Assembly: GCF_058153355.1 (NCBI RefSeq) | Contig: NZ_JBLWLY010000002.1 | Direction: 5' to 3' (one strand) | DNA length: 64,000 bases | Origin: a plasmid | Shown here: one piece after another, positions 12,001 to 21,000 of the stretch | Layout: every line of letters starts with the position of its first letter | How positions within the stretch are numbered: position 1 is the first letter of the stretch | Position numbers: made by a program

Positions 12001-15000
12001 TCCAGCAGTTCAGCAACAGCACCTGTCCAGCGCCCCAGTGTGGCACGGCTCAGCTCCACGCCCTGACGACGGTATATTTCTGACTGGCGGTATAACGGCA
12101 GATGGTCTGCATATTTTCCAGCGACAACATGGGCCAGAAGCCCCGCTCCGGCATAACTGCGTGCAATGGGTTTTGAAGGCACCGGAGCCTGCACGATATG
12201 GTCGCACCGGCAACAGGCCAGTTTCGGACGTTGTGTTTCGATAACCTTAAAGGCGCTGCTGATAAGCTCCAGTTGCTCTGACACATCACATCCCAGAGAA
12301 CTGAGTTCGCCACCACAGGCCGGGCAGCATTCCTCTTCCGGACGGATGACCCGGGTTTCACGGGGAAGTGAGGCAGGTAACGGTTTACGGGCTGAAGACT
12401 GGCGCAGGGGAGATGGCAGTACCGGGTCATATTGCTCACCCAGCGTTTCCGCCATTTCTTCCTGAAGAGCGCTGATTCGCTCCTGTGCTTCCTGTATCTG
12501 CCGTTCGGTTTTTGCACGAAGTTTTTCTGAGCTTTTACCGAACTGCATGCGCTGCAGTTTTGCAACCAGCGCCTTCAGCCGGTTGATTTCGGAAGCATAA
12601 GCCGCCACCCGCTGTGAGAGCAGGCGGTTGTATTTCGCCATCTGGCGGATGGTGTCCTGTTGCGTCTGCAACAGTGCCCGCAGGCGGGCATTCTCATGAG
12701 CAAGTGAGGTGTCCATATCCTCACTTTACAACGGGTTATATGCGGATGCCAGCGCGTTCCGTTCGTTTCGGGTGTTTCCAGTCGATGCCCTCAAGAAGCA
12801 TGGATAACTGGGCCGGAGTAAGGTGCACCTTGCCGTCACGGGTGACCGGCCAGACGAAGCGGCCCCGCTCCAGGCGTCTGGTGAAGAGGCACAGTCCGTC
12901 ACTGTCAGCCCACAACACTTTTATCTGGTCACCCCGGCGTCCGCGGAAGATGAACAGATGCCCGGAGAACGGGTCATCCTTCAGGACGTTCTGAACTTTT
13001 GAGGCCAGGCCGTTAAAGCCATTTCGCATATCGGTGATACCTGCAACCAGCCAGATACGCGAACCTGCAGGGAAAGATATCATCAGTGGCTACTCCCTTT
13101 TATTTCGCGGATAAGTATCTGTAATAACGCCAGCGTCAGTTTACCTTTAAGCCTGAGAGTTCCGGCCGGCAGAACCAGCTCATAGCACAGACTGTCGGAC
13201 GGTGTATTTATCTGCTCTGGTTCCTGTGCCGGAGCCGGGATTTTATTATCCGGCTCCGGCGTTAACGTCACGGGAAGTAGCGATGTTTCATGTTCGCCGG
13301 GCGGCTGCAGGCCGCCGTTACGCCAGAGATGCCGCCAGTTAAAGAGCAGGTTATCGTTGATTCCATTCTCACGAGCTATTTGTGCGACACAGGCACCGGG
13401 TAAAAGAGTTTGCTGAACAAGTCTCCATTTAAACTCCGGTGAAAATCGGTTCCGGCGGGGTTTCTCTGCTTTCACAGGCTGAGTCACGGTCGGGGTTGAA
13501 GGATATCGCCCCGGGAAAAGAGCCCGGGCCAGTTGCCCGCAGGAATATTCGCCGGAAAGAGGCCAGTCAGTGAATACCTGGTGAAATCGCCTCACCAGAG
13601 AAAAAATGGCGGTTTTGCTGACACCAGTCTGCGCAGAAATGCGCGGGTACGACAGTGACTCGTCAAATCTCAGCTGTAGCACACGCAGGATCAATTCCGG
13701 ATTATCTGCCAGTACCGCCTTTCGTGCATTCGGACGGTGGCGGTTACATGATGCCGGATGGCGACCGTTTTTATCTGGTCAACAGTGAAAACTGGTTTGA
13801 CCGCACGGTCAGCGCCGATGCCGCAGGCATCATTCTTACCTCCCTTGTGATTAACCGCCTGTTGTGGCTGTACCACGACAGCGGGGATGCGGGACTGACA
13901 CACCTGTACCGGATGCGCGATGCGCAGTTGTGGAGCCACATCGAATTTCACCCCGAATGTAACGCGATTTACGCGGCACTGGACTGATTAACGGACGGGG
14001 CGGCAATGCCGCCCCTGTAAAGGAGACGAGAACATGTACTGTTAAAGAAATTATCCGCGAAGTGCTGGATACAGACGTGCCGGACAGTGAATGCGTTTTT
14101 GCCGTGGTGCTGACCCGTGGGGATGTGCGTCACATAGCCCAGGACTGGAGTCTGACAGACGATGAGCTGGAAACCGTCATGCAGCGGCTGGACGATGCCT
14201 TTGAGCATGGTGCGGATGTCAGCGTTGTTCACGACGTTGTTCGTGAACTGATGGAAGAAAAGCGCGCCAGTCGTCATGTGACAGTCCCGGCGGTGATGCT
14301 GGAAAAAGTGATGGCGCTGGCAGGCAGTGAAATGAAGCGCCTGTATGCCGTCGGGAGTGAGAACGGGGGCGACAGTGACGCATTCGTCAGGGAGGAACGC
14401 GAAGCAATGGACGTTGTGTTACAGGCGCTGGACGGGGAGACGATGTCATGAATATCAGCACAGAAACCTGCGAAATTCTGCGTAATTACAGGGCCGTGAT
14501 TAATGCGCGGCGTCGTGAAATGGGGCAGAAACCGCTCACCACCGCGCAGATTGTTGATGAAATCTGCGATTTTGTGGCGAATCAGCAGGCGGTTTTCCTC
14601 GGTGGTCACTACATCCTTCAGGGCAGCAGAAACAGGTGATACAGGGGCAGGCGGTTGAGGCCGCCTGTCAGCCCGCGCGAAAACCCCTGGCAGGCTGGCG
14701 CCTGCCGGAAGGGAAGCGGGCCACGCTGGCGCGTCGCCCGTTACCCTTCCCGTCTGTGATGTGTCTGACTCAGGAGTGTTTCTTTCTTATGTTATGGAAC
14801 TGTTCCTGATGTTGTTGTTCCTTTATCTGCTGCTCTGATTCTGACTACTGCAGTGTTGTTCTGTCTGCCGGGCGCACCTTCGGCTCCCGGCTGCCTGGCG
14901 GCATCTGGTCGTCAGGCCCGACTCCGACAGGCAGCTGCTGGCGCACCTGCCAGTCTCCGCCGAACCCGCTGGCGCGGTTTCGGGCTGTCGCTACGGTCCG

Positions 15001-18000: not shown

Positions 18001-21000
18001 GCCCTGAATGAGGCAGGGCTGTCCGGTGCCGCACGGGACGCGGAGAAGATGAAGAAAGGTGATGCGGCTGAACATGCAGAGCACCATATGAAAGACAACC
18101 GCTGGGTTCCAGGCTGGATGTGTGCACCACATCCACAGACAGATGCCACTGAACGCACCGATAACCTGGCTGATGCCGCCTGATGAACAACCACACCGCC
18201 CCGCCGGAGACGGGGCGGCAGCAAGGGAGATACTGTGATGAAAACTGAACTGACCCTGAATGTATTACAGACCATGAGTGCACAGGAATATGAAGATATC
18301 CGGGCTGCCGGAAGTGATGAACGCCGTGAGCTGACACACGCCGTGATGCGGGAACTGGATGCGCCGGACAACTGGACGATGAATGGCGAGTACGGCAGCG
18401 AGTTCGGCGGCTTTTTCCCCGTCCAGGTCCGTTTCACGCCTGCCCACGAACGTTTTCACCTGGCGTTATGTTCACCGGGCGATGTCTCTCAGGTCTGGGT
18501 GCTGGTTCTGGTGAATGCCGGTGGTGAGCCGTTTGCGGTGGTTCAGGTGCAGCGGCGGTTTGCACCGGAAGCTGTCAGCCATTCACTGGCACTGGTTCCC
18601 CTCAGCGCAGAGCAACAGGCCGCATGGCGGGCGCTGGCAGAGACGGAAAAACGCCGCCATCAGGGAAACTTGCTGGCGGAATATCCGTATGCGGGGGCGT
18701 TTTTCCGCTGTCTGAACGGAAGCCGCAGGATATCGCTGTCTGACCTGCGATTTTTCATGCCGTCCCTGACCGCAGAAGAACTGCACGGCAACCGTCTTCA
18801 GTGGCTGTATGCCATCGATGTGCTGATTGAAACACAGGGCGAGGTCTGCCTCCTTCCCCTTCCCGGTGATGCAGCAGAGCGGTTGTTTCCGTCGGTGCGG
18901 TTCCGTGTCAGGGAGCGCAGTCGCCACAAATCCGCACTGGTCATGCAGAAGTACAGCCGTCAGCAGGCACGGGAGGCAGAGCAGAAAGCCCGTGCGTACC
19001 AGGCACTGGTTGCTCAGGCTGAAATCGAACTGGCGTTCCATTCACCGGAAACAGTCGGAAGCTGGCATGCCCGCTGGAGTGACCGGGTGGCAGAGCATGA
19101 CCTGGAAACCCTGTTCTGGCAGTGGGGTGAGCGTTTTCCGTCACTGGCCGGGATGGAACGCTGGCAGTGGCAGGATATGCCATTCTGGCAGGTTATCGCG
19201 GAAGCCAGTCTGGCAGCAAGAGAGGTCGGTCACGCTGTCCGTGAGATGGAGCGGTGGATGGTGCCGAACAAACTCCGGGAGGCAGCGTAATGCGGCAACA
19301 ATCACACAGATTACCCGTAAACAGCCTGAATGAGCGGGTTATTTTCAGGAAAAGTGAATGTGGTCAGCGTGCTGGTATATGGGCTATGATGTGCCCGGCG
19401 CTTGAGGCTTTCTGCCTCATGACGTGAAGGTGGTTTGTTACCGTGTTGTGTGGCAGAAGGACAAAAGCCCCGTAGTTAATTTTCATTAACCCACGAGGCC
19501 CTGCATGCTTAGACAACATCAGGATAGCCTCTTACCGCGCTTTGCGCAAGGAGAAGAAGGCCATGAAACTACCACGCAGCTCCCTTGTCTGGTGTGTGTT
19601 GATCGTGTGTCTCACACTGTTGATATTCACTTATCTGACACGAAAATCGCTGTGCGAGATTCGTTACAGAGACGGATACAGGGAGGTGGCGGCTTTCATG
19701 GCTTACGAATCCGGTAAGTAGCAACCTGGAGGCGGGCGTAGGCCCGCCTTTTCAGGGCTGATGCTGGTCTGACTGCACTGAAGCGCCTTTATAAAGGGGC
19801 TGCTGGTTCGCCGGTGGCCCCTTTCTCCTTGCTGGCATTGTGCGGGCATGAACAACCAGGCTGCCAGGAAGGCCGTTTCCCTTCGGGAACGGGGAAGAAC
19901 GCGCGCCTGCGGCGCCCGTTCTTCTCCTCCGTCTTCTCTGTTTATGGCCAGTTGTCAGAAATGACATTACCTTTCCCGTGATTATTCTCTTTTTCTTCCT
20001 GCTCTGATTCTGACTACTGCAGTGTTGTCCTGTCTGCCGGGCGCACCTTCGGCTCCCGGCTGCCTGGCGGCATCCGGTCGTCAGGCCCGACTCCGACAGG
20101 CAGCTGCTGGCGCACCTGCCAGTCTCCGCCGAACCCGCTGGCGCGGTTTCGGGCTGTCGCTACGGTCCGATGCGTGAAAACCCCGGGCTTGCAGCGACCG
20201 TTCCGGTCGCGCCGCCTCTGTCGCGCCGTGGCCTGCGCTCCTGGCATCCCGGCAAAAGGCCGCCGGGATGTAAGGCGCAACGCCGTTTCGCAAACCGCGC
20301 TTCACGTCGTTGCGGCGGGTCCCTGCCCGTTGTTGTGTCCGGTGCCATTCACCTGTTTAAGCCCCTGTCGCCGGGGGCAAAGACAGCCACAACCTGCCGC
20401 ACTGACTGTCTAGGGTAAATGAACAGCCCACAAAATTTTTTACCCAAAACCCGGTAAAAAATTTTGCGTTCTGCCCCGGACAGGTGCGTCAGGCCGTGGC
20501 AGTGATGCCCCTTGCGGCGAAGGTTCTCAAACAGGTGATGGTGAATACCGGAGGGAACAAAAGGCCGGTCCCCGCAAAACGTCAAAACCGCGGCTCCCGA
20601 AACTCAACCGATGATGGGGGCTGAAAACCAGAGAGAGGAGAAAGCAGGATGAGTACCCGAAATATCCACGTTAACACCGCGTCGTACACGCTTCTTGTTG
20701 CCGGGAAGAAAAAAAACACCGGGGAAGAGTGGGACGTCCTGGAATTCAGCAGCCTGACTGAGCTGAAAAAATATCGCAAAAGCCACCCGGAAAAGATGGC
20801 CTTCAGCTATAGCTACGCGCTCAGCCGGGGTGTGGATACGCAGTTCCGCCATATCAACATTGCGGAAGCCGATCACTTCAAACAGTTCCTGCGTCAGATT
20901 AAGCGTGCCGGCCTCGATATCCGGGCGATCTGCTGACCGGATGTGATGAATATCCCTCCTGATTATTGCAATCTTGTTAATGGAGATCAGGAGGGGATGA

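Follow-up and report, generated by a model that had tools for sequence, protein, structure and literature searches.

The plasmid contig NZ_JBLWLY010000002.1 (NCBI RefSeq assembly GCF_058153355.1) carries two near-identical, GC-rich intergenic repeats, copy A upstream of ssb and copy B upstream of an orf95/ygeA homolog, within a 64,000-nt stretch that was analyzed whole and is called the window here. Judged by sequence homology, these repeats are the counterparts of two single-strand promoters of the F plasmid, Frpo2 (upstream of ssb-parB-like-psiB-psiA) and Frpo1, or ssiD (upstream of ygeA/orf95). Our joint reading, to which we assign a probability of about 0.8, is that the repeats are these counterparts, that copy B is an intact single-stranded DNA (ssDNA) promoter, and that copy A carries an internal deletion and is most likely inactive. 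Homology, strand, fold, and covariation were established in this analysis, as were the rarity of the deletion and its direction; the function of the Frpo elements in F is taken from the literature.

A direct-repeat search paired 14819-15118 with 19988-20287 and 15192-15313 with 20507-20628. Base-by-base comparison of copy A (14830-15313) with copy B (19999-20628) found three mismatches (positions 14860, 14906, and 15294) in 484 aligned bases; a 484-bp repeat with 99.4% identity cannot have arisen by chance. The repeats have a GC content of 63.6%, compared to 48% for the whole window. An initial annotation, made from the sequence alone, had noticed this pair of near-identical segments and placed their starts exactly, describing each as running to the start codon of its gene. 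Their location upstream of ssb and of the orf95-like gene is confirmed, but the near-identity ends ∼20 nt short of each start codon, and the ribosome-binding regions differ between the copies.

The region matches at least 5,000 F-like enterobacterial plasmids at 90 to 99% identity, and positions 56925 to 67064 of F (NC_002483) are colinear with 13731-23685 of the window at ∼94% identity. It is recognizable as the leading region of an F-like plasmid, with the gene order truncated klcA/ardB homolog, DUF1380, ssb, DUF905, ParB-like gene, psiB-psiA, hok/sok, orf95/ygeA, DUF932 gene, SLT transglycosylase, and traM. The initial annotation had proposed a single-strand promoter of the Frpo/ssi type and named alignment with F Frpo as a check. 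In a four-way alignment, both window copies were homologous to both F intergenic elements over the whole length, and this direct homology, together with the stable hairpin on the transferred strand described below, supports that proposal. The minus strand of copy B at 20274-20615 corresponds to the F ssiD sequence (D90178) listed in the supplement of PMC11541004. In F, Frpo1 lies upstream of ygeA and Frpo2 upstream of ssb, the two being 92% identical and ∼5 kb apart, and deletion of either abolishes the early production of the downstream proteins in transconjugants (PMC9849209, Couturier et al. 2023). Frpo1 is the element studied in vitro by Masai and Arai (1997), according to PMC9849209. F Frpo1 and Frpo2 and ssi1 to ssi3 of ColIb are classed together as class 1 ssDNA promoters, and the transcription starts of the pESBL ssi homologs have been mapped by 5' rapid amplification of cDNA ends (PMC12672017, Wen et al. 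2025). In vivo support has also been given for transcripts of these promoters priming complementary-strand synthesis (Fraikin et al.). The single-strand promoter identity of such elements is therefore already known, since those of the window are orthologous to the characterized elements of F.

The transferred strand was identified from the origin of transfer. The F oriT nic-site sequence (GTGGGGTGTGGTGCTTT) has one exact match in the window, on the minus strand at 22766-22782, against a chance expectation of 0.01. The minus strand, which carries this site, is therefore the one transferred. Its 5' end enters the recipient first, entry proceeds in the direction of decreasing coordinates, and the leading genes on the plus strand are templated by it. 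Both repeats thus have the location of class 1 promoters, in the leading region and upstream of genes templated by the transferred strand (ssb, followed by the ParB-like gene and psiB-psiA, and orf95).

On this strand, copy B is predicted to form a long and unusually stable imperfect hairpin (20274-20615; minimum free energy, −102.0 kcal/mol; z = −10.2 relative to dinucleotide shuffles; z = −9.4 for the whole element). The plus strand of the same region is ∼9 kcal/mol less stable (−92.9 kcal/mol), a difference that fits the conversion of G-T pairs into A-C mismatches on the plus strand. The equivalent region of copy A reaches −50.5 kcal/mol on the minus strand (z = −4.6). The proximal stem of copy B is identical to that of copy A, and the block that copy A lacks forms a coaxial distal extension of it. 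Folding of the transferred strand had been suggested in the initial annotation as a search for promoter hexamers within stem-loops; the stable hairpin was found, with candidate −35 and −10 sequences in copy B, whose exact assignment is our own proposal. A scan against Rfam returned no family covering either repeat, and its only significant match was sok (92.9 bits).

The distal hairpin is conserved as a structure. We aligned 10 members, comprising copy B, the two F elements, pKKo009_1, the three ColIb elements, one Serratia sequence, and two insect-metagenome sequences. The consensus fold contains 27 pairs, with 93% of cells paired and compensatory changes at 10 pairs. None of 500 shuffles reached the observed pairing and covariation, and controls in which the alignment was slid were 38 to 50% paired. 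A helix of TGTCCxGGG with CCCT(G/A)GAC is invariant in sequence in 10/10 members, the adjacent 11-pair helix covaries (7 pairs), and all 10 keep an internal loop that separates helices 1 and 2 close to the hairpin base.

The two copies differ chiefly by a block of 146 bp, present in copy B and absent from copy A, that makes up nearly all of the distal hairpin (Table 1). The initial annotation had described this block as ∼156 bp, flanked by GCCCC and containing a perfect 13-bp palindrome, and had taken it for a small inserted element or an added hairpin. The palindrome is present (arms at 20432-20444, AAAATTTTTTACC, and 20453-20465, GGTAAAAAATTTT) and the flanking repeats are real, being the 6-bp GCCCCT; the length and limits of the block needed correction, and the notion of an insertion did not survive wider comparison. 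Both F copies contain the block, as do ColIb ssi1 to ssi3, the Serratia sequence, and the insect-metagenome relatives at the same place. The block with its flanks occurs in at least 5,000 PLSDB plasmids, and the block alone at 8,521 places in 3,116 of 5,426 complete Escherichia coli genomes. The block-less junction, sought with a junction-specific 48-nt query built so that full-length elements could not seed a match, was found in just 14 of 72,556 PLSDB plasmid records (12 of them well covered) and in 4 of the 5,426 E. coli genomes; this query had no 100% full-length match in PLSDB or in RefSeq E. coli. Given that the block is widespread and the junction rare, these data indicate that copy B is the normal form and copy A a rare deletion derivative rather than the ancestral state.

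The same observations bear on whether the block might be a mobile element, of the kind of a miniature inverted-repeat transposable element with an imperfect inverted repeat and a 6-bp target duplication, that entered copy B. Its palindromic sequence and the GCCCCT direct repeats at its flanks give it the superficial anatomy of one. However, it occupies the same site in both F copies, has the same length (151 to 153 nt) and compensatory base changes in the distant ColIb ssi1 to ssi3, and has no further copy in the window. Dispersed copies and a common empty site would be expected of such an element; instead, the copies are confined to Frpo positions, 8,438 of the 8,521 E. coli places (99%) are on plasmids at a median of 3 per genome, which fits the Frpo copy number rather than dispersal, and the empty site is the rare state. 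We give almost no credence to insertion and retain deletion from copy A.

Slipped-strand deletion classically occurs between short direct repeats that flank the base of an imperfect palindrome. The copy A deletion probably arose in this way, by slipped-strand mispairing between the GCCCCT repeats. In 5/5 other plasmids examined (pKKo009_1, pMRY16-002_1, pI66, an RHB13 plasmid, and p2492-2), the identical junction lies at the other position, upstream of ygeA. In pKKo009_1 and pMRY16-002_1, it is accompanied by single-nucleotide polymorphisms within 20 to 30 nt that are absent from copy A of the window. These differences in flanking polymorphisms and in position favor independent recurrence of the deletion over the spread of one transferred allele. 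Because the junction affects the ssb copy in this plasmid and the ygeA copy in the others, and the copies evolve in concert (see below), one could go further and regard precise excision of the 146 bp as a natural off-switch for the zygotic induction of one leading operon, restorable by gene conversion from the sister copy ∼5 kb away; we consider a switch of this kind unlikely.

Where within the hairpin the promoter lies determines what the deletion has cost copy A. We infer a position in the distal hairpin, as well as the exact hexamers, the transcription start, and the loss of activity in copy A. ColIb ssi1 to ssi3 are reported to be active promoters (Nasim 2004, as cited in PMC12672017), and they share with F only the distal hairpin (151 to 153 nt) and the 3' module, without the F proximal arm; this is one of the grounds on which we place the promoter in the distal hairpin. 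A working Frpo2-acrIIA4 construct begins exactly with the block's first base, leaving out the proximal 3' arm, and an A+T-rich UP element has been described in Frpo (PMC11541004). No part of the element other than the apex palindrome is A+T rich, and we assign the UP element to this palindrome (20432-20465). The invariant helix, the covarying helix, and the retained loop would together form the pattern of a −35, a spacer, and a preopened −10. The candidate −35, TAGACA, matches TTGACA at 5/6 positions and is the only −35-like motif invariant across the family (T[G/A]GACA), and the candidate −10, TGTCTT, lies in the conserved internal loop 18 helix positions away. Transcription would then start at a position templated near plus-strand 20512 ± 3 and give a 5' untranslated region (UTR) of ∼137 nt, whose sequence is nearly invariant between F and the window.

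Other placements were considered. TTGACG...TATTCA in the proximal 5' arm was rejected for its 32-nt spacing and its absence from ColIb. TTGAGA-17-CATCAC, located where the proximal and distal stems meet, would direct transcription to the apex; the partner of its −35 is missing from the construct of Samuel et al. (PMC11541004) and the motif is absent from ColIb, and we rank it below the distal 3'-arm model. Copy A would lose this motif too. TTGTGG as −35 with T(G/A)GACA as −10 was also rejected, since T(G/A)GACA fits a −35 far better and the spacing is irregular (15 to 17 nt).

We propose the following course of events. The minus strand would enter the recipient 5' end first from the nick at ∼22773, and copy B would follow after ∼2.1 kb. 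Once single stranded, copy B would fold into an imperfect hairpin of ∼320 nt, the distal half of which would rebuild a double-stranded sigma-70 promoter on the 3' arm (UP element at the apex, TAGACA as −35, an 18-position spacer helix, and the −10 in an open loop). RNA polymerase would transcribe the 5' arm outward, producing the ∼137-nt 5' UTR and then orf95, and synthesis of the complementary strand would remove the hairpin and switch the promoter off. In copy A, the precise 146-bp deletion would have removed the apex, the −35, and the −10 and left the proximal stem alone.

Copy B thus retains the distal hairpin with a −35-like helix, a spacer helix, and a putative −10 loop, all of which fall inside the 146 bp missing from copy A. 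Since the proposed promoter features are all in the deleted segment, copy A has most likely lost single-strand promoter activity, and the plasmid has one intact class 1 promoter, copy B. A linear scan for sigma-70 promoters found none inside either repeat on either strand, and hence no conventional promoter for ssb within copy A; this result is consistent with activity restricted to ssDNA but is not proof of it. Such restriction, with SSB-dependent sigma-70 transcription and a zygotic induction that strand conversion brings to an end, is known from the literature for the F and ColIb counterparts. The only consensus-like sigma-70 site near the repeats is ATGACA-16-TATTCT (19961-19988, plus strand), which lies across the 40 nt preceding copy B and the left edge of the repeat, where the match is poor, and could be an ordinary double-strand promoter reading in.

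Several points weigh against this account. The −10 and hexamer assignment is its least secure part: TGTCTT fits the consensus at only 3/6 positions, and the assignment is ours rather than a published boxed −35/−10; the reviews and supplements consulted give no such coordinates. No promoterless control for the Frpo2-acrIIA4 construct was seen in PMC11541004. The proximal-stem sequences TTGACG (5/6) and TATTCA are themselves conserved in F-type, Serratia (TTGACT...TATAAC), and insect elements, and palindromes are prone to cloning deletion and misassembly.

The conservation of the proximal stem raises the alternative that copy A is still a working single-strand promoter, its essentials being TTGACG and the bulged TATTCA on the 5' arm of the proximal stem, with the distal hairpin adding only stability or an UP element. 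ATTCA is unpaired in the predicted fold, the stem of copy A still folds well (see above), and the boxes are called "canonical" in PMC9849209. However, the two hexamers are separated by 32 to 33 nt, and that arm has no bulges that could bring them closer; the arm is wholly absent from the ColIb elements, which are reported to be active, the partner arm was omitted from the construct of Samuel et al., and the deleted form is extremely rare. Taken together, continued activity of copy A seems unlikely to us, and loss of activity with the distal hairpin remains the preferred interpretation.

The tendency of long palindromes to be lost also allows that the copy A deletion is an artifact of assembly or cloning and that the real plasmid has two full-length elements. 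At least 10 independent records of complete plasmids share this precise junction, among them a clonal set from a single farm study in which it is stably inherited, and a second deletion between short direct repeats is present in the same operon of the window, consistent with real decay. We therefore regard an artifact as very improbable and treat the deletion as genuine. It fits relaxed selection on transfer functions in a decaying plasmid, given the truncated tra operon, the IS66-family insertion next to klcA/ardB, and the psiB-psiA fusion described below. Loss of Frpo2 function would be tolerable, as the laboratory transfer frequency of F with Frpo2 deleted was not reduced (PMC9849209).

Open reading frames (ORFs) of 46 to 102 amino acids occur inside the repeats, among them 15001-15309 and 20170-20418, and in pKKo009_1 and pMRY16-002_1 the NCBI pipeline PGAP places a 51-amino-acid ORF annotated as "SSB" within the element. 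Annotation pipelines label such short ORFs in Frpo elements "single-stranded DNA-binding protein" or "hypothetical protein" (L002, 6984-7139; L003, 6981-7136; L007, 1553-1639). On the strength of these ORFs and labels, the repeats could be taken for small-protein genes or for ordinary double-strand promoter and leader regions. Against this idea stand the negative sigma-70 scan, the difference between the ORFs of the two copies caused by the indel, the missing ATG of a short conserved leader ORF in the insect-metagenome sequences (by our reading), and a pattern of conservation that consists of covariation in paired columns and is not codon-like. The idea has next to no chance of being correct, and the small ORFs inside Frpo elements are probably spurious.

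The two copies within a plasmid resemble each other more closely than either resembles its positional counterpart in F. In module I (block boundaries in this comparison are offset by 8 nt), identity is 98.9% between the two window copies, 98.3% between the two copies of pKKo009_1, and 76.5% between those of F, compared to only 41 to 56% between a window copy and its positional F counterpart. The 146-bp block of copy B is likewise closer to that of Frpo2 (93%) than to that of its positional counterpart Frpo1 (73%). Since copies from the same plasmid match each other and not their positional counterparts, and since the block of copy B is nearer Frpo2, copies within one plasmid have evidently been homogenized by gene conversion. 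The risk of recombination between Frpo1 and Frpo2 has been noted (PMC9849209), and we found no description in the literature of concerted evolution of the two copies. Module II (106 nt) shows 96 to 100% identity when the window copies and the two F copies are compared, and the ColIb ssi elements contain a related module. It lies upstream of the putative transcription start and contains two short GC hairpins (e.g., CATCCCGGC...GCCGGGATG).

Table 1. Features of copies A and B and of their surroundings (window coordinates)
Feature	Coordinates	Strand	Description
Copy A	14830-15313	−	Counterpart of F Frpo2 upstream of ssb, with 146-bp internal deletion of the distal hairpin
Module I, copy A	14830-15009	−	
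Module II, copy A	15010-15115	−	Conserved
Residual hairpin, copy A	15116-15288	−	Proximal stem only; small CCTT/AAGG apical stem
Single GCCCCT	15192-15197		Deletion junction of copy A
ssb	15335-15874	+	First gene downstream of copy A; colinear with F ssb; N terminus MAVRGINKV; start ATGGCAGTTCGTGGC
sok	19396-19565		Rfam match
Copy B	19999-20628	−	Complete class 1 ssDNA promoter element upstream of orf95/ygeA; corresponds in position to F Frpo1/ssiD
Module I, copy B	19999-20178	−	GC rich, lineage specific
Module II, copy B	20179-20284	−	Conserved; 3' of the hairpin on the transferred strand; short GC hairpins
Long imperfect hairpin, copy B	20285-20603	−	Proximal stem plus distal hairpin; outer pair 20603/20285; corresponds to F ssiD D90178
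Left GCCCCT repeat	20361-20366		Bounds the block
Block absent from copy A	20367-20512 (equivalently 20361-20506)		146 bp; nearly all of the distal hairpin
Candidate −10, TGTCTT	20380-20385	−	Within a conserved internal loop close to the distal-hairpin base
Candidate −35, TAGACA	20407-20412	−	3' arm
A+T-rich hairpin apex	20432-20465	−	13-bp palindrome arms, 8-nt loop; likely UP-element equivalent
Right GCCCCT repeat	20507-20512		Bounds the block
orf95/ygeA homolog	20649-20936	+	95 codons; first gene downstream of copy B; colinear with F 288-nt ORF 64032-64319
F-type oriT nic site	22766-22782	−	GTGGGGTGT/GGTGCTTT

Elsewhere in the window, the tra operon is truncated (22617-27384). It retains oriT, traM, and the beginning of traJ; the stretch F 67064-69680 (the rest of traJ, traY, traA, traL, traE, and the start of traK) is missing at ∼23685-23769; traK'-traB-traP and then trbG-traV-traR follow, with no F match beyond 27384, i.e., after traR. 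Self-transmission is improbable for this plasmid. In the operon that follows copy A, psiB and psiA form a single in-frame ORF of 351 codons (18235-19290; junction at 18587/18588); a 98-bp deletion between imperfect direct repeats, TTCAC(T/A)GGCACTGG (TTCACxGGCACTGG), distinguishes it from F and pKKo009_1 and accounts for the fusion. PsiB loses ∼26 C-terminal residues; this is the second short-repeat deletion of that operon. Three full or partial copies of an IS66-family element are present (11114-13731, ∼29170-30772, and 44358-47784; 523-amino-acid transposase and a TnpA accessory protein). Synteny with F begins no earlier than 13731, a position within the klcA/ardB homolog and beside the first of these copies, and the region that holds the class 2 promoter in F (Frpo3/ssp2) is consequently absent from the window.

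Further features were observed outside the repeats. A strong hairpin at 21870-21932, right after the DUF932 gene (stop at 21877), has subthreshold Rfam matches to microRNA precursors and may be a terminator or a structure of the transferred strand. A 30-nt motif, CAGGGGCAGGCGGTTGAGGCCGCCTGTCAG, with a short GC hairpin inside, occurs at 14642-14671, just upstream of copy A, and at 16849-16878, within the ParB-like gene (87% identity). Just past the tra remnant, tandem-like direct repeats with ∼400-bp spacing span 27245-28060, each beginning with a sequence resembling a ribosome-binding site and ATG (27245-27324 and 27651-27730, 93%; 27500-27657 and 27903-28060, 89%). Cargo of the virulence-plasmid type includes a PefC/AfrB-family fimbrial usher (1045-3480, plus strand), a 1,370-amino-acid autotransporter (31873-35985, minus strand), and a group II intron reverse transcriptase/maturase (44651-45883, minus strand).

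As a discovery, the elements themselves carry little weight: Frpo1 and Frpo2 have been characterized, and 13,089 Frpo homologs have been counted in 6,006 conjugative elements (PMC11541004, Samuel et al.). Only two details are new: a deletion of the promoter core that is rare and seems to recur, and the homogenization of the two copies, the latter a modest addition. For annotation, two large unannotated GC-rich intergenic repeats are explained and the small ORFs within them are flagged. The rare deletion allele, already supplied by nature, could also be used to find out which half of the hairpin is responsible for promoter activity.

Compared to known systems, the window copies are closest to F Frpo1 (ssiD) and Frpo2, also called ssp1a and ssp1b, which occupy the same positions, ∼5 kb apart, and share their strand orientation with respect to oriT. 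Identity between F and the window is 96 to 100% in the hairpin arms and the 5' UTR, and the long-hairpin architecture is the same. In F, however, both copies have the 146-nt distal hairpin, which copy A of the window lacks, and the F copies are less alike (92% identity as published and 80% over the longer alignment used here) than those of the window. ssi1 to ssi3 of the IncI1 plasmids ColIb-P9 and pESBL resemble the F-type elements in the length of the distal hairpin, the invariant TGTCCxGGG/CCCTxGAC helix, the A+T-rich apex, the internal loop near the hairpin base, and a related 3' module; they differ in having another proximal stem, with no TTGACG/TATTCA arm, and compensatory changes at many paired positions. 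The class 2 ssDNA promoters, which include F Frpo3/ssp2 upstream of ardB/klcA and the insect-metagenome element Frpo' 4 (PMC11541004), are unrelated in sequence to the window copies. By our reading, Frpo' 4 (TTGCAT...TAAGAT) nevertheless carries both boxes on its 3' arm, the −35 toward the apex and a mismatched −10 toward the base, with transcription directed outward, and this shared arrangement of −35 and −10 supports placement of the class 1 promoter on the 3' arm.

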